Shown in pieces: positions 46,816 through 51,546 of a stretch of DNA of 64,000 bases. How positions within the stretch are numbered: position 1 is the first letter of the stretch; each line of letters begins with the position of its first letter. Location: the IMG/VR virus record IMGVR_UViG_3300008107_000020; one strand, 5' to 3'. The notes under the pieces are model-generated. The model was given only the letters and a program-made list of their open reading frames with translations, was not told the origin of the DNA and ran no database searches. The DNA is from a virus (lineage: Duplodnaviria; Caudoviricetes). Both the position numbers and the translations under genes were made by a program.

Positions 46816-47058
46816 ATGAATAAAATTACTTTTGAATACTTGAAAGATTTAAAAAATCAGTTAACAACATTAGCTGATGAACAACAAGATAAGCTGGAAG
46901 AAATTGATAACGAAAATTTTAAAGATGATGTTTCTGAAAACATTTTTGGTAGAATAGATGATGTTTTATATGAGATAGAGACTATAATGACTGATGTTGA
47001 AGAGGGTTATTATAGTAACGAAAAAAATGATCAAGATGATGATTTTGATGATTATTAA
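46816..47058 (+). CDS. Acidic hypothetical protein
   Basis: ORF track; preceded by TATTTATT. Confidence 0.65.
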   Translation: MNKITFEYLKDLKNQLTTLADEQQDKLEEIDNENFKDDVSENIFGRIDDVLYEIETIMTDVEEGYYSNEKNDQDDDFDDY

Positions 47059-47076
47059 AAATAATTTTTAAAAAAA

Positions 47077-47121
47077 CTTGTTTTTTCCAAAAAACTTTAC
47101 TAATATTGTAGCATATTTATA
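47077..47121 (+). promoter_or_regulatory. Promoter P1 (host-type) with adjacent TATTTATA motif
   Basis: CTTG-N20-TAATATTG, with the same AAAAAACTTGTTTTTT context as P2 at 48431. Confidence 0.6.
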
Positions 47122-47127
47122 AAAGAT

Positions 47128-47472
47128 ATGAAAAACTACTAGATTAACAAATTAATCATCGTAACCAGAAAGGACTTAGCACCAGGTTACCAAATTGCTC
47201 AAGCGAGTCACGCTTTAGCGCAATTCATGCTTGACTATCCTGATCAAGCTAATCAATGGAACAATAACTATCTTATCTGTTTGTCCGTTGAAAACGAAAA
47301 TCAATTAAAAACTTTACTGGAAAAGATGTGTATGCATGACATACCCATATCTTATTTTCTCGAACCAGATCTTGGTAACGAGATGACAGCTATTGCTTTT
47401 CAAGGAAGTGAAAAGGCGAGTAAATTAACTTCGTCTATACCATTGGCATTAAAATCTTATAATAAACAATAA
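47128..47472 (+). CDS. PTH2-family peptidyl-tRNA hydrolase-like protein with in-frame TAG at codon 5
   Basis: ATG AAA AAC TAC TAG ATT AAC AAA TTA ATC ATC GTA ACC AGA AAG GAC TTA... The conserved KLIIVTRKDL...AQASHA motif lies between the TAG and the track start at 47227. Confidence 0.8.
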
Positions 47473-47482
47473 ATCAACGATT

Positions 47483-47740
47483 ATGAAGTAGATTACAAAA
47501 AAACCAGAAGAGATCGTGTTTCACTTTAATAAGAAACATCTCGAAACCCCAACAATCCCCATGTGGGTTGTGAAGTGTCGTGGCGACACCTATTATGTTA
47601 ACCATATTGATGTATCCCCTGGTGTGGGGTTCTCAACAAAGGAAACTCCTGATAACCCTCATACTAAAGGGAGTATAAAATTCAAGGCCAACTTGATGAT
47701 TGAGGAACAAAATAACATAATTAACGCTAAAATTTATTAA
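47483..47740 (+). CDS. Hypothetical protein with in-frame TAG at codon 3
   Basis: ATG AAG TAG ATT ACA AAA AAA CCA GAA GAG ATC GTG TTT CAC..., in frame with the track ORF at 47516. The ATG has an A-rich leader 10 nt after the previous stop. Confidence 0.7.
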
Positions 47741-47742
47741 AA

Positions 47743-48036
47743 ATGAAAAACACAAAACACAACCCAACAATGATGATTAAATCAGCTTTCTCAAATAAAC
47801 TTCACAAAATACTAGGTGAATGCATCGAACACAAACGCTATTCAAGAGAATGGTATGATTGTAAAAGAGTAAAAACCAAATTGACTGATGAGGATAAAAT
47901 TAAACTTTTTGATGAGATCAAAACCATCTATGAAGAAACTTCTCAAGAACTGAGAAATTATTTTCAGGATAGAAATCTTAAGAAAAGAGTTGAAAAAGAA
48001 CGAGTTAAGAGAGGTTATACAGTCCAGTTGAGTTAA
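47743..48036 (+). CDS. Hypothetical basic protein
   Basis: ORF track. Confidence 0.65.
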   Translation: MKNTKHNPTMMIKSAFSNKLHKILGECIEHKRYSREWYDCKRVKTKLTDEDKIKLFDEIKTIYEETSQELRNYFQDRNLKKRVEKERVKRGYTVQLS

Positions 48037-48048
48037 AGACTCAATGGA

Positions 48049-48189
48049 TGTTGTGTGACGAAATTGGTATACGTGCTGGTCAGTACCCAAAAGAGTGTAG
48101 AATGGGGGAAACTGGCGGACATACTACAGACACGAGTAGTAGGAGATTAGGTCTTTAAATCCATGTGGGTTCGAATCCCACCACAACAG
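48049..48189 (+). ncRNA. tRNA-Leu-like RNA with a 65-nt insert in place of the anticodon loop
   Basis: Acceptor TGTTGTG/CACAACA, Leu-type D arm ACG-AAATTGGTATA-CGT, stem CTGGT/ATTAG, T arm GTGGG-TTCGAAT-CCCAC. Confidence 0.65.
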
Positions 48190-48250
48190 CGCACCAACAT
48201 AAGGTTGGAACCTCAAGGCTACGTAGAGGATAATGGTTAACGTAGCAAAT

Positions 48251-48321
48251 GGTTGGATGACCGAGAGAATAGGTAAAAATCCGCAAGATTTTTTACGGTG
48301 GTTTGAATCCATCTCCAACCT
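48251..48321 (+). tRNA. tRNA-Cys(GCA), degenerate
   Basis: Full cloverleaf with U73, but C33, a TTTG T-loop and no GG in the D-loop. Confidence 0.6.
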
Positions 48322-48328
48322 CTAAAAT

Positions 48329-48403
48329 GGCTCTATGGTGTAGCGGCAACATAGGAGACTCTAAATCTCACAGTCACGGGTTCGAACCCCGTTAGGGCCA
48401 CCA
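48329..48403 (+). tRNA. Amber suppressor tRNA (anticodon CUA) with encoded CCA
   Basis: GGCTCTA/TAGGGCC acceptor, GTGT/ACAT D stem, loop CT-CTA-AA, ACGGG-TTCGAAC-CCCGT, A-CCA. Confidence 0.88.
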
Positions 48404-48436
48404 AAAAATAAAAAAAATAAAATTTTTTTGAAAAAA

Positions 48437-48468
48437 CTTGTTTTTTTCAGAAACTTTGCTTAATTTTG
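48437..48468 (+). promoter_or_regulatory. Promoter P2 of the main tRNA array
   Basis: CTTG-N20-TAATTTTG. Confidence 0.7.
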
Positions 48469-48493
48469 TACTAATTATAACAATAACATAAAA

Positions 48494-48592
48494 ATGAAAA
48501 ATATGAACCTTCATATCGCAGTGATTAAACCGATGGCAGTGTGCCAGTGGTATCCTCGTGCCGTATCAGGTTCAGACCAAGTATTTTCATGA
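48494..48592 (+). CDS. 32-aa attenuator leader peptide
   Basis: MKNMNLHIAVIKPMAVCQWYPRAVSGSDQVFS*; A-rich initiation region; contains both terminator-competing segments. Confidence 0.75.
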   Translation: MKNMNLHIAVIKPMAVCQWYPRAVSGSDQVFS

Positions 48593-48626
48593 TGTTATAG
48601 AAATAAAACTAAAACTAAGAAAACAC

Positions 48627-48661
48627 AAAGCCCTGAACCTACAAGTTCAGGGTTTTTTTTT
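48627..48661 (+). terminator. Attenuator terminator immediately upstream of the tRNA array
   Basis: AAAGCCCTGAAC-CTACAA-GTTCAGGG-T9. Confidence 0.88.
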
Positions 48662-48694
48662 GTAGTTCTTTGACGTATTGGTAATTTTAAAAAT

Positions 48695-48769
48695 AGTGTA
48701 GTTGGCCAATTGGTAGGCCGCCTCATTTGGGATGAGGACATAGTGCAGGTTCGAGTCCTGTCTACGCTA
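48695..48769 (+). tRNA. tRNA-Pro(TGG)
   Basis: Cloverleaf; CCTCA-TTTGGGA-TGAGG. Confidence 0.85.
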
Positions 48770-48776
48770 CTTAATT

Positions 48777-48852
48777 CAGGATATGGGGGAGTCAGGTCGT
48801 CCCTACCTGCCTTGGACGCAGGGGATCGCTGGTTCGAATCCAGCTATCCTGA
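48777..48852 (+). tRNA. tRNA-Pro(TGG), second divergent copy
   Basis: Cloverleaf; CCTGC-CTTGGAC-GCAGG. Confidence 0.85.
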
Positions 48853-48858
48853 CACAAT

Positions 48859-48932
48859 GTCTTCGTAGCTCAGTTGGTTAGAGCACCTCACTTTTAATGA
48901 GGGAGTCACAGGTTCGAGTCCTGTCGGGGACA
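48859..48932 (+). tRNA. tRNA-Lys(TTT)
   Basis: Cloverleaf; CCTCA-CTTTTAA-TGAGG. Confidence 0.92.
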
Positions 48933-48937
48933 CAAAC

Positions 48938-49007
48938 GTATAAGTTGATCGTGGTGGTCGGTTGGTCTGCAAAACCAACGGTGTTGGTTCGATTCCAACC
49001 TTATACT
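48938..49007 (+). tRNA. tRNA-Cys(GCA)
   Basis: Cloverleaf; TTGGT-CTGCAAA-ACCAA; U73. Confidence 0.82.
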
Positions 49008-49016
49008 CAAATATAC

Positions 49017-49087
49017 ACGGATATGGTGAAATGGTATCATAATGGTCTCCAAAACCACAGTTCAGGGTTCGAATCCTTGTATCCGTG
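49017..49087 (+). tRNA. tRNA-Trp(CCA)
   Basis: Cloverleaf; loop CTCCAAA; G73. Confidence 0.88.
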
Positions 49088-49093
49088 CTAAAT

Positions 49094-49173
49094 GCCCTTG
49101 TAGGCGAATGGTATAGCCGCTGGTCTTAGAAACCAGAGCGAAAGCATTGCAGGTTCGAGTCCTGCCAGGGGTA
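49094..49173 (+). tRNA. tRNA-Leu(TAG)
   Basis: Cloverleaf with long variable arm; CTGGT-CTTAGAA-ACCAG. Confidence 0.9.
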
Positions 49174-49178
49174 CACAT

Positions 49179-49251
49179 GCACCTTTAGCTCAGTTGGTAG
49201 AGCGCTGCCCTTACATGGCAGATGTCATAGGTTCGAGTCCTATAGGGTGTA
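49179..49251 (+). tRNA. tRNA-Val(TAC)
   Basis: Cloverleaf; CTGCC-CTTACAT-GGCAG. Confidence 0.92.
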
Positions 49252-49255
49252 CAAA

Positions 49256-49387
49256 GGTTGATTGGGGAATGATCACATCAATAGTTCGAGAGTGAATACT
49301 GACTGGTGTGATCGGAGTTTGCAGGTATTCACCTAAGTAATGCCGATCGTAAAAGAGGATGTCCACTGAACCATCTTCCTCTTTCCT
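49256..49387 (+). ncRNA. Unidentified pseudoknotted structured RNA in the tRNA array
   Basis: Stems 49271-80/49304-13, 49292-99/49325-32 (crossing), 49260-65/49343-48 and 49352-59/49377-84. Confidence 0.6.
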
Positions 49388-49392
49388 AACTT

Positions 49393-49474
49393 GCCAGTAT
49401 CGCATAGCGGCAATTGCAGCGGATTGTAAACCCGCTCTCATTCGAGTTCGGTGGTTCGAGTCCACCTGCTGGCA
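49393..49474 (+). tRNA. tRNA-Tyr(GTA)
   Basis: Cloverleaf with long variable arm; loop TTGTAAA. Confidence 0.88.
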
Positions 49475-49486
49475 CTATTTATTAAT

Positions 49487-49948
49487 ATGAGGAAACTAAT
49501 ATTAATGATCGTAATGGTTTTATCCACAACGATTTGTAAATCACAAATTGTGATAGATAAAGCTGGGGATGGTTGGGATCTAAGAGCTGATAGCGCTTTG
49601 GTGATTATTAAGCAAACAGATACCACCGCATATAAACTCGTATTACGAGTTTGTAATAAAATAACTTTTTGGTCTGGGAACTACTCAACAAACGAGGGTT
49701 CTAAAGATACAAAAGGAAGTATAATAATATCATCGACAGATGCTAGGGCTAAATCCTTAAACAATCTAGCGGCTGTTATTGTGCACGAATCTTTACACCT
49801 TTATCTTAGATATAGGGGTGTTCAAGAATCACCAAGAGAAGAAATACTCTGTTACTCATATGAGTATGACTTCTTAAGGAAAATACCAAATGTTGAACAA
49901 TATCTGTTAGACCATTGTCTAAGACAGATAAACCTTCGACAAAATTAA
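49487..49948 (+). CDS. Secreted HExxH (zincin-like) protein inserted in the tRNA array
   Basis: Signal peptide MRKLILMIVMVLSTTICKSQ; VIVHESLHLY and a downstream EE. The track start at 49451 overlaps tRNA-Tyr. Confidence 0.7.
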   Translation: MRKLILMIVMVLSTTICKSQIVIDKAGDGWDLRADSALVIIKQTDTTAYKLVLRVCNKITFWSGNYSTNEGSKDTKGSIIISSTDARAKSLNNLAAVIVHESLHLYLRYRGVQESPREEILCYSYEYDFLRKIPNVEQYLLDHCLRQINLRQN

Positions 49949-49949
49949 T

Positions 49950-50022
49950 GGGGTTATAGCTCAATTGGCTGAGCGCTTCCCTTGCAAGGAAGAGGATGTG
50001 GGTTCGAGTCCCATTAGCTCCA
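49950..50022 (+). tRNA. tRNA-Ala(TGC)
   Basis: Cloverleaf; G3:U70; loop CTTGCAA. Confidence 0.92.
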
Positions 50023-50028
50023 CTATAT

Positions 50029-50102
50029 TGTCCTTTGGTGTAATGGCAGCACATCTGGTTTTGAGCCAGAGAATTCAGGTTCGAGTCCTGAAGGGACAAC
50101 CA
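50029..50102 (+). tRNA. tRNA-Gln(TTG)
   Basis: Cloverleaf; U1:A72; loop TTTTGAG; encoded CCA. Confidence 0.88.
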
Positions 50103-50105
50103 AAT

Positions 50106-50180
50106 GGCGAGATAGCTCAGAGGAAGAGCATTCGGCTCATATCCGAAAGGTCGGGATTTCGAAATTCCCTCTCGCTACCA
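50106..50180 (+). tRNA. tRNA with CAT anticodon (elongator Met or Ile2)
   Basis: Cloverleaf; TTCGG-CTCATAT-CCGAA; lacks initiator GGG/CCC; encoded CCA. Confidence 0.85.
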
Positions 50181-50185
50181 TACAT

Positions 50186-50259
50186 GGTGTCTGTAGCTCA
50201 ATCGGGAGAGCACTTGATTGTGATTCAAGAGGTAGTGGGATCGAAACCCACCAGTCACC
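50186..50259 (+). tRNA. tRNA-His(GTG)
   Basis: Cloverleaf with G-1 and C73; loop TTGTGAT. Confidence 0.85.
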
Positions 50260-50262
50260 CAA

Positions 50263-50377
50263 AATAGGTTACCCCGTTTGTTCCGTCAGGGGTTATAAAA
50301 TAGATATCAGTTAACGGAACCCATGATGGAGACCCTGCCAAGAAAGTGGGTGAAAGATATTGTAACAATGACCTATT
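50263..50377 (+). ncRNA. Second candidate pseudoknotted RNA in the tRNA array
   Basis: Closing stem 50263-69/50371-77; 50271-75/50289-93 crossed by 50280-86/50314-20. Confidence 0.45.
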
Positions 50378-50381
50378 ATTT

Positions 50382-50455
50382 GCCTTCATAGCTCAATGGA
50401 TTAGAGCGTTTCGCTACGAACGAAAAGGTTGGGAGTTCGAGTCTCTCTGAAGGTA
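50382..50455 (+). tRNA. tRNA-Arg(ACG)
   Basis: Cloverleaf; TTTCG-CTACGAA-CGAAA. Confidence 0.92.
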
Positions 50456-50515
50456 CAATAAACCTGTTTTTGTAACGATAAACCAAACAAGTTTATTGAG
50501 CAAAATCTAATTTAT

Positions 50516-50589
50516 CGTCCTGTAGCTCAGTTGGTTAGAGCGTCTGCCTGATACGCAGAAGGCCGCTGGTTCGAGTCCAGCTAGGACGA
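50516..50589 (+). tRNA. tRNA-Ile(GAT)
   Basis: Cloverleaf; TCTGC-CTGATAC-GCAGA. Confidence 0.9.
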
Positions 50590-50655
50590 CTCAATATTTT
50601 AATTACCAGTACTGTCTTTTTTTCGTTTATAAAAGTATTTATAATAAAAGCTTTT

Positions 50656-51546
50656 ATGAAAAAAATTACCTTAAACGAAGAACTTACCAGAATGCAAGAA
50701 ATGATGGGTGTTAAGCATACTAGCCCAAGTGGTAAGGTTACAAATATGTCACCAGAAGATGATGACTATGAAATTAATTATGGTAAAGATGCCATAAAAG
50801 AACTTTCTCCTTCAGACATAGTTGGTTCAATGAGAGAAGAAGAGACTGATGAAAATACGGAAGTCCTTAATAAATTCAAAGACCAATACGGAGACAAAAA
50901 AGGTGAAAAAATTTATTACGCAACTGCTAATAGTCAGGATAGAGATCCAGAAACTTTTGAAAAGAATGAAGAGTCTGCAATTGGTGGATGGGATCTTGCT
51001 ATGGAAGAAGACGCTAGAGTTGATTCTGATAATAGGGTTGATTATCTTGCAAATGCGTTAGAACATATTTGGAATATGGGTAGTGGTAAAAATGATATTG
51101 ATTTCAAATCAGTCGCCCAATCACTTTGTGATGATATGTTCGGAGAACCAGAAGAAAATACAGATGAAATTCCAGGTTTTGAGGGTACCAAAGACGCTTT
51201 AGATGATTTAAGTATCAGAGAAGAAGAAAAATCTTTCATGGAAACAAGAGGTGGTGCAGAAGGTCCAGTTTATGAAAATGAAGAAATGGGTGAGGGTAAA
51301 AAATTTAAACAAGAAACGTATTTTGAAACACAAGCTGGTGCTTTAGAATCGGCTAAAGAATACGCAGCTCAAAAAGGCTATGTTGCTAACTTTGAAAGTA
51401 TAACACCACAACATGTTGCTTATGGTCAAACCGTTAGTTACAGCGTTGAATTAATGAAGGATGGTATGCCAGTTAAAAAAATGTTACAGATATCTTTATA
51501 TAGAATGGAATCTGGTAGGTATGAGCTAACGAATTATATTAACTAA
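50656..51546 (+). CDS. Acidic hypothetical protein with the shared LNEE-x-MMG N-terminal tag
   Basis: MKKITLNEELTRMQEMMGV. Confidence 0.75.
   Translation: MKKITLNEELTRMQEMMGVKHTSPSGKVTNMSPEDDDYEINYGKDAIKELSPSDIVGSMREEETDENTEVLNKFKDQYGDKKGEKIYYATANSQDRDPETFEKNEESAIGGWDLAMEEDARVDSDNRVDYLANALEHIWNMGSGKNDIDFKSVAQSLCDDMFGEPEENTDEIPGFEGTKDALDDLSIREEEKSFMETRGGAEGPVYENEEMGEGKKFKQETYFETQAGALESAKEYAAQKGYVANFESITPQHVAYGQTVSYSVELMKDGMPVKKMLQISLYRMESGRYELTNYIN

Follow-up and report, generated by a model that had tools for sequence, protein, structure and literature searches.

A probable leader-peptide attenuator whose codons mirror the phage tRNA genes behind it

The IMG/VR virus record IMGVR_UViG_3300008107_000020 (Duplodnaviria; Caudoviricetes) supplied the stretch of 64,000 nucleotides (nt) analyzed here, hereafter the window, in which a 32-codon open reading frame (ORF) and an intrinsic terminator stand between a putative promoter and an operon of 14 transfer RNA (tRNA) genes. 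We consider it likely that this arrangement is a ribosome-mediated leader-peptide transcription attenuator placed before a phage tRNA operon. An earlier note on this DNA had proposed the core of this reading, namely a translated leader, a switch among three RNA helices (1:2, 2:3, and 3:4), and codons that list the downstream tRNAs, and the computational tests that were run support it for the most part. All evidence for the leader switch is computational: sequence analysis finds the ORF with its amino acid inventory, the alternative pairings, and leaders that co-vary with their arrays.

The leader ORF lies at 48494-48592 on the plus strand, with its ATG at 48494, its TGA at 48590-92, and the inventory in codons 1–24. 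The tRNA unit (48695..50590, plus strand) was delineated with ARAGORN, and the Rfam model RF00005 confirms all 14 genes. The array, found with the same 14 tRNAs in relatives, reads Pro, Pro, Lys, Cys, Trp, Leu(UAG), Val, Tyr, Ala, Gln, Met(CAT), His, Arg(ACG), and Ile(GAU), i.e., 13 specificities. Codons 1–24 of the leader encode 14 amino acid types, comprising all 13 specificities of the array plus Asn as the only extra. This inventory had been claimed in the earlier note and is confirmed; the coordinates given there for the ORF and for the four pairing segments S1–S4 agree with the sequence base for base. In a six-frame scan of the window covering 45,465 stop-free stretches of 24 codons, 13 of 13 specificities with one extra type at most were reached by three stretches, all overlapping the leader ORF, and the best stretch not overlapping it reached 12 of 13. 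The chance of such an inventory is 3e-7 if calculated analytically from the phage proteome composition, 2e-5 for random codons with the base composition of the leader, and 1.8e-4 by the hypergeometric estimate of the earlier note, with the codon-24 cut-off having been picked post hoc at a cost of about tenfold in significance. Because the first eight residues form a module conserved across a wider leader family, codons 9–24 were tested separately: all 16 residues are in the set and make up 11 types, with a chance of 2e-6 to 4e-5.

The choice among synonymous codons points the same way. The leader uses CTT for Leu (CTA in most relatives), CGT for Arg, and ATC and ATT for Ile, the families read by the array anticodons UAG, ACG, and GAU. 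In the long ORFs of the window, CTN makes up 30% of Leu codons and CGN 19% of Arg codons; the phage genes favor TTA, at 59%, for Leu and AGA/AGG, at 82%, for Arg. These counts bear out the claim that CTT and CGT follow the array anticodons against the preference of the phage; the joint chance of the Leu and Arg family matches is ~0.06, or ~0.03 when the two ATY Ile codons are included.

A putative promoter with a conserved block occupies 48437..48473 on the plus strand, with TTG at 48438-40 (−33 region), TAATTTTG at 48461-68 (−7 box), and the block itself at 48454-48473. The block occurs once within the window and is kept in 12 of 12 distinct relatives, with a variable 5′ untranslated region (5′UTR) downstream of it. 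The Bacteroidota promoter consensus is TTTG / TAnnTTTG, which we take the block to match, its variable base falling at an ‘n’ position; conservation and this consensus together suggest a promoter. A sigma-70 promoter scan gave only background-level hits. The leader ATG lies ~20 nt past the predicted start site, behind an A-rich 5′UTR, and opens the sole ATG ORF that fits wholly within the promoter–terminator interval on the plus strand. Its frame, length, and stop are maintained in 10 distinct nucleotide versions, two of them ~20–25% diverged; the stop has changed from TGA to TAA in three versions, and in the relatives insertions and deletions flank the ORF on both sides, with none inside it. 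A Pfam search with the leader peptide found no family. A public gene call of 124 amino acids (P0003) runs through the leader TGA, over the terminator, and into the first tRNA genes; it is probably an artefact of gene calling with TGA as a sense codon.

The RNA of this interval can form three alternative pairings. Segment S1 (TGAACCT, 48504..48510, plus strand) is the 5′ half of a 1:2 helix within a long hairpin that spans the whole ORF; segment S2 (48568..48575, plus strand) pairs with S1 or, as an antiterminator, with S3; and the intrinsic terminator (48627..48661, plus strand) consists of S3 (48631-40), S4 (48645-52), and a T9 tract (48653-61). The minimum-energy fold pairs 48504-10 with 48568-74, and the entire ORF folds as one long imperfect hairpin that, together with the terminator, has a z score of −5.2 against shuffled sequences. 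S2 is a perfect 8-nt complement of 48633-40, and seven of the eight 2:3 pairs are retained in 12 of 12 versions. A terminator scan returned a stem at 48627-48656 with 12 pairs, a 6-nt loop, and a T tail; across the 12 versions, 100% of its cells are paired, with changes that are solely G-U-compatible, and pairing in hairpin plus terminator holds in 95–97% of cells over all versions. S1 is unchanged in all relatives, and 1:2, 2:3, and 3:4 all exist and are retained in every version. The T tract ends 33 nt before the first tRNA; therefore, tRNA expression must cross the terminator.

The effect of a ribosome on these helices was modeled by keeping a 28-nt footprint unpaired around each codon in the ribosomal aminoacyl (A) site. 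The ribosome-free RNA forms 1:2 and the terminator. When any of codons 2–15 or 19–22 is in the A site, the RNA up to S3 takes the 8-pair 2:3 helix as its minimum-energy state; for codons 16–18 the program predicts 1:2 closed around the footprint, an arrangement that is doubtful on steric grounds. The footprint masks S2 once the A site has reached codon 23, and at the stop codon 1:2 re-forms. The predicted sensing window is codons 2–22. By codon 22 every specificity of the array has been listed, and, the N-terminal Asn codons aside, no out-of-set residue occurs before codon 25, so the boundaries of the inventory and of the sensing window agree.

In the mechanism we propose, transcription would start at the conserved promoter, near 48474, and the first 190 nt would yield a long hairpin holding the 32-codon ORF, including S1:S2, followed by the S3:S4 terminator with its T9 tract. 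With no ribosome, or with a smooth run to the stop codon, S2 would be unavailable, either paired with S1 or under the ribosome; the terminator would form, and the tRNA genes would be off. A ribosome with its A site stalled on any of codons 2–22 would occupy the 5′ arm and leave S2 free to pair with S3 before S4 is made, and once 2:3 had formed, RNA polymerase would read into the 14 tRNA genes. Slow decoding would give read-through and more tRNA, whatever made it slow, be it a poor host pool, host shut-off, or a tRNA-targeting defense. As the sensed codons are the families read by the array's own tRNAs, the device would act as an OR gate over 13 decoding steps with negative feedback on supply. 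We infer the translation of the ORF, the stalling, the kinetics of helix competition, and the direction of regulation from the features described above.

If the leader reads the tRNAs it controls, leader and array should change together, and diverged homologues were recovered in which they do, through a 20-nt motif in front of the array (28 IMG/VR stretches) and, for locus L095, through an exhaustive protein search with the leader. The arrays of L082, L084, and L095 have no tRNA-Ala and carry tRNA-Ser(GCU). Their leaders retain 32 codons and the stop position, the Ala residues at positions 9, 15, and 23 are all replaced, and AGT, which is the Ser codon that GCU reads, stands at position 11. 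L082 has its only Arg at codon 9 (CGA, within the ACG-read family) instead of codon 22, and the leader lists 13 of 13 specificities of its own array through codon 25, with Asn as the sole extra. For six substitutions placed at random over 24 codons, the chance that all three Ala positions change is ~0.01. L082 and L095 have several changes in common, so the Ala/Ser switch may be one evolutionary event. Another branch of the leader family (L073, L074, L075, and L087) starts with MKNLHI and precedes arrays of Leu(UAA), Met, Gly(UCC), Ala, and Glu, with Ile(UAU) and Asp in addition in L074. These leaders spell Leu as TTA/TTG and Gly as GGG/GGA and have a core rich in L, G, A, and E; therefore, the homologous Leu position switches codon family with the anticodon.

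The same design is found in two phages whose leaders cannot be aligned with that of the window, the cultured Cellulophaga phage phi17:2 (NC_021798.1; L067) and the 635-kilobase (kb) uncultured phage LR745206.1 (L068). As in the window, their cassettes comprise a promoter, a mini-ORF starting with MK or MT, a run of residues within the amino acid set of the block, and a terminator 10–35 nt before the first tRNA; the leader was taken as the ORF ending just before each terminator, and a GTG start was assumed for phi17:2 leader B. They differ in that each leader covers 1–9 amino acids and the tRNA set is split over several cassettes, whereas the window leader covers 13 in 22 codons for the whole array. 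In phi17:2, three tRNA blocks are each preceded by a mini-ORF and a terminator (L067 2889-2957, 3849-3932, and 5408-5506), and leaders A and B have a promoter-like repeat in common. Leader A has an 11-residue run of Q, R, L, H, E, and P only, before a block of Pro, Glu, Gln, His, Leu(UAG), Leu(UAA), and Arg(ACG); leader B has a 16-residue run of T, K, G, I, V, D, A, and R, before Ala, Lys, Ile, Gly, Met, Asp, Thr, Val, Arg(UCU), and Met; and leader C has a 10-residue run of Y, N, S, W, and F, before Tyr, Ser, Asn, Trp, and Phe. The longest in-set runs of 11, 16, and 10 residues against the own block compare with 1–5 against the wrong blocks. Codon families follow as well: Arg is CGT in leader A, whose block has Arg(ACG), and AGA in leader B, whose block has Arg(UCU), and the Leu codons TTA and CTA of leader A fit both Leu tRNAs of its block. 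In the fold model, sensing in leader A extends up to codon 14, the end of its in-set run; the results for leaders B and C are less clean.

LR745206.1 has three leaders, each matching its own tRNA block. A 38-codon leader, with M, T, N, L, V, I, R, and one Cys in its first 25 residues, stands before an Asn/Arg/Leu/Val/Ile/Thr/Met array, a P/Q/D-rich leader before Pro and four Asp tRNAs, and a Gln-rich leader before three tRNA-Gln genes. When seven leaders were set against seven tRNA sets, the true pairing was the best of 5040 permutations, and coverage of the own set was 100% for every leader. A copy of the terminator 3′ arm occurs in the ORF tail of the leaders in which it was looked for, phi17:2 leader A and LR745206.1 leader b.

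Several side observations concern these cassettes. The tails of the non-homologous leaders have a G-S-D motif (SGSD, EGSD, or GSDG; window codons 25–28, L068:19460-19576, and L067:5408-5506), encoded by a GGTTCNGA-like sequence that resembles a tRNA T-arm; this likeness may reflect chance or a common constraint on the antiterminator segment. Two of the phi17:2 cassettes overlap annotated hypothetical proteins partly or not at all, and ARAGORN places an unannotated tRNA-Lys(UUU) at L067:4149-4221.

A number of findings weigh against an attenuator tuned to individual tRNAs, some of them in the leader and its array. Asn codons 3 and 5 would be sensed to no benefit, since there is no tRNA-Asn in the array. 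For seven amino acids the leader has one codon each, fewer than in classical attenuators, and lone codons may yield weak signals. The CAT tRNA lacks the three G-C anticodon-stem pairs expected of an initiator and may be Ile2 instead of elongator Met, in which case Met would become a second extra type, the leader having no ATA codon. The N-terminal module keeps His, Ile, Lys, and Asn before arrays without a detected cognate tRNA, e.g., tRNA-His, and as Leu6, His7, and Ile8 belong to it, part of the match in the window may be inherited rather than tuned. Locus L061 has an Ala-less, Ser-containing array and an unchanged leader in which three Ala codons remain; it is read as a recent recombinant, though it is a genuine case of non-tracking. 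The co-variation that the earlier note expected between leader codons and array content mostly holds: it is seen in the joint loss of Ala and gain of Ser in L082 and L095 and fails in L061. Lastly, once the RNA is complete, the terminator fold has the better energy in every case, and antitermination must therefore be kinetic, as it is in the trp leader.

The lone codons, the sensed Asn, the family-wide module of the first eight residues, and the mismatch in L061 would all fit a leader that is translated and attenuating but reads general translation capacity (available ribosomes, the overall pace of elongation) or infection timing instead of single tRNAs, the match to the array being only partly functional. 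We find this unlikely, as the leaders of phi17:2 and LR745206.1 are strongly block-specific (e.g., Gln-rich before three tRNA-Gln), Ala and Ser were swapped jointly in leader and array in L082 and L095, and the Leu, Arg, and Gly codon families track the anticodons.

The close relatives bear on the more basic question of whether the leader is coding at all. Using the flanking 296-amino-acid protein and a DNA pattern, we recovered 18 leader loci from IMG/VR and JGI/ENA metagenomes, with eight nucleotide versions of the leader ORF among them. The promoter-to-tRNA region is 89–95% identical in the relatives, compared with just 46–83% for the flanking protein. The 18 substitution events among them also count against a coding leader: they fall 8:5:5 on codon positions 3:1:2, a weak coding signature, and 15 of the 18 fit conservation of the hairpin equally well (loop positions, G-U changes, and one compensated pair). 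As for compensatory changes, which the earlier note had suggested looking for, one pair is altered on both sides, in two lineages, and shuffle-based covariation tests on the hairpin, the terminator, and the antiterminator were not significant, the sequences being too similar for such a signal. The metatranscriptome offers little help. Contigs X15 and X16 span the leader, terminator, and array plus ~270 nt upstream of the promoter; they come from one study, may be DNA, and are uninformative on transcript start, end, level, or regulation. Contigs X17 and X18 cover tRNA parts only. As the codon-position split is weak and most changes are hairpin-compatible, close relatives alone cannot separate a coding leader from a structured RNA, and judged on them alone, the attenuator would be a tentative proposal, somewhat short of an even bet.

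Some features of the relatives nonetheless point to a peptide, namely the absence of insertions and deletions from the ORF and the L008 type, in which R22H occurs together with P21R so that a single Arg codon is retained. In relatives without the tRNAs (L007, L011, L021, and L022), the promoter and leader are gone, and the terminator is kept and ends the upstream gene. The L004 and L060 versions of the leader contain Thr without a matching tRNA-Thr. The arrays of L024 and L035, found via a homologue of a 147-amino-acid ORF described below, have no leader or terminator immediately before the tRNAs, which means that not every array uses the leader design.

Taken at face value, the strong hairpin, the hairpin-compatible substitutions with no clear third-position excess, and a spacer past the stop codon that is as conserved as the ORF would suit a structured non-coding leader or small RNA, made up of the promoter, a 100-nt hairpin, an A-rich spacer, and the terminator, with an accidental reading frame and a terminator that is leaky or ignored by the tRNA-making polymerase. 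Trans-acting roles are known from other bacteria for terminated attenuator RNAs (PMC6614838), and a promoter and a terminator for a small RNA are present here, but the reading frame is conserved and mirrors the array. We give this explanation only a small chance, since it leaves four things unaccounted for: the 13-of-13 inventory, the joint Ala/Ser change, a frame and length kept over ~25% divergence, and six non-homologous, block-matched leaders in two other phages.

The 20-nt motif TTCTTTGACRTATTGGTAAT (48666-48685, plus strand) lies between the terminator and the first tRNA. It has 28 exact matches in IMG/VR, most of them 4–11 nt before a tRNA of otherwise different arrays. Within the window it is found once, and of the 55 loci carrying its 16-nt core, all but two have a single copy. 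Rearrangement breakpoints adjoin it where the first tRNA-Pro is lost (L008), the array is lost (L022), or a tRNA-Pro is transposed (L082). It may serve as a promoter inside the unit, as a signal for RNA processing, or as the border of a cassette; were it a promoter, the switch would be bypassed and would govern only part of the transcription of the array, a further point on the negative side. The perfect conservation of this motif before tRNAs in many otherwise unrelated arrays also gives room to the idea that the mini-ORF, with a promoter and a terminator to itself, is a stand-alone gene for a small protein and that the array is driven separately, e.g., from 48666-48685. That idea appears very improbable to us. 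The motif is present once per locus and not at other genes, and in L082, L088, and L091 a tRNA sits between the terminator and the motif; the leaders of phi17:2 and LR745206.1 do without it, their terminator–tRNA gap being just ~10–20 nt; and the peptides of different phages are non-homologous, each mirroring its own array, with no Pfam family.

A leader-peptide attenuator has well-known counterparts in enterobacteria. The attenuators ilvL (of ilvGMEDA), ilvBN, thrL, trpL, hisL, pheL, and leuL likewise have a short ORF right after the promoter, with the regulatory codons lying before segment 2, and a terminator that precedes the regulated genes and is stabler than the antiterminator. Their 1:2, 2:3, and 3:4 helices exclude one another and their control is kinetic, as is proposed for the window; ilvL also has 32 codons and senses several amino acids. 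They differ from the window element in that they regulate biosynthetic enzymes rather than tRNAs, whose action falls directly on the sensed step, and in that their leaders contain runs of one to three kinds of amino acid, compared with 13 in the window, most of them once. The window element has no sequence similarity to the enterobacterial leaders and is carried by a phage of a Bacteroidota-type host. Rfam holds no family for it; the non-tRNA matches (ohsC and Thr_leader) are far below threshold, with Thr_leader, the sole leader match, at 22.5 bits against a cutoff of 55. The pheM attenuator of E. coli pheST (phenylalanyl-tRNA synthetase), in which slow cognate decoding raises the supply of decoding machinery, is similarly a case of leader-peptide attenuation of a translation-apparatus gene, although it concerns one amino acid, a protein product, and a cellular genome. 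T-box riboswitches also attenuate transcription in response to tRNA status, but they need no translation, the specifier codon and the T-box bulge making direct contact with uncharged tRNA; a search of 47000-51500 for the T-box model (Rfam RF00230) with E up to 1 found none.

The Anabaena PCC 7120 trn operon, a megaplasmid-borne set of 26 tRNA genes repressed by the ribbon-helix-helix protein TrcR, is likewise an accessory array that stays off until translational stress turns it on (PMC10272220). It relies on a protein repressor in place of a leader peptide and terminator, and it resides on a megaplasmid, not in a phage (PMC10272220). Full-text literature searches returned no description of leader-peptide attenuation of tRNA genes. 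The nearest published logic is that of the Anabaena TrcR-controlled trn operon, and the nearest mechanisms are the multivalent ilv-type and pheST attenuators.

Leader-peptide control is textbook knowledge for amino-acid genes, and the window would extend it to tRNAs, to phages of Bacteroidota-type hosts, and to 13 inputs. The candidate reasons for phages to carry and use tRNA genes are a match to codon usage, making up for host shut-off, and evasion of tRNA-targeting defense. If our reading is correct, the phage gauges decoding speed and supplies tRNAs on demand, which would amount to a virus running the translation machinery in a closed loop. As an account of the design, plain negative feedback on tRNA supply does just as well as a trigger by anticodon-nuclease defense, which is speculation, and is simpler. 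The broadest version of the idea, in which a phage of ~300 kb uses a 13-input OR gate to sense the loss of any host decoding capacity, including immune cleavage or depletion of tRNAs, and makes replacements, while modular cassettes of leader, terminator, 20-nt motif, and tRNAs are exchanged and re-tuned codon by codon, strikes us as doubtful. The design also offers a practical rule: the leader predicts the tRNAs of its block, and vice versa. The same design is present in the cultured pair of Cellulophaga baltica and phage phi17:2, so the idea is directly testable at the bench.

Gene content and the completeness of related contigs point to a ~300-kb phage of a Bacteroidota-type host from fresh water as the source. 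Proteins encoded in the window include glycosyltransferases, a ClpB-like ATPase, and a UvrD helicase, and one has a weak match, below the Pfam cutoff, to a type-IX-secretion sorting domain; related contigs of 51–73 kb are rated 17–25% complete. The GenBank phage collection contained no close relative of the window, only tRNA-sized matches, and a PHROGs search with eight neighboring proteins found nothing.

Upstream of the promoter and outside the attenuated unit, ARAGORN and Rfam (58.9 bits) identify a tRNA(CUA) of the amber suppressor type (48329-48403, plus strand), close to a doubtful tRNA-Cys call at 48251-48322. The tRNA(CUA) is present in the window, L056, L058/L060, L065, and L095 and absent from L001–L005 and L008, where a protein gene ends at that place. 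There is no TAG codon in the leader, and under the standard code the long ORFs of the window stay open.

The array also contains, between its tRNA-Tyr and tRNA-Ala genes, an ORF of 147 amino acids with an HExxH motif (49505-49948, plus strand). No Pfam or PHROG family was found for it; its homologues occur in 41 IMG/VR loci, most without tRNAs nearby, and it is missing from the arrays of L061, L069, L082, and L095. The spacer between tRNA-Val and tRNA-Tyr (49253-49392) is ~140 nt long, a length conserved across all related arrays. The metatranscriptome contig X17 connects 49256 to 49393, omitting 136 nt, a gap that could reflect the array of another phage without the insert or an excised element.

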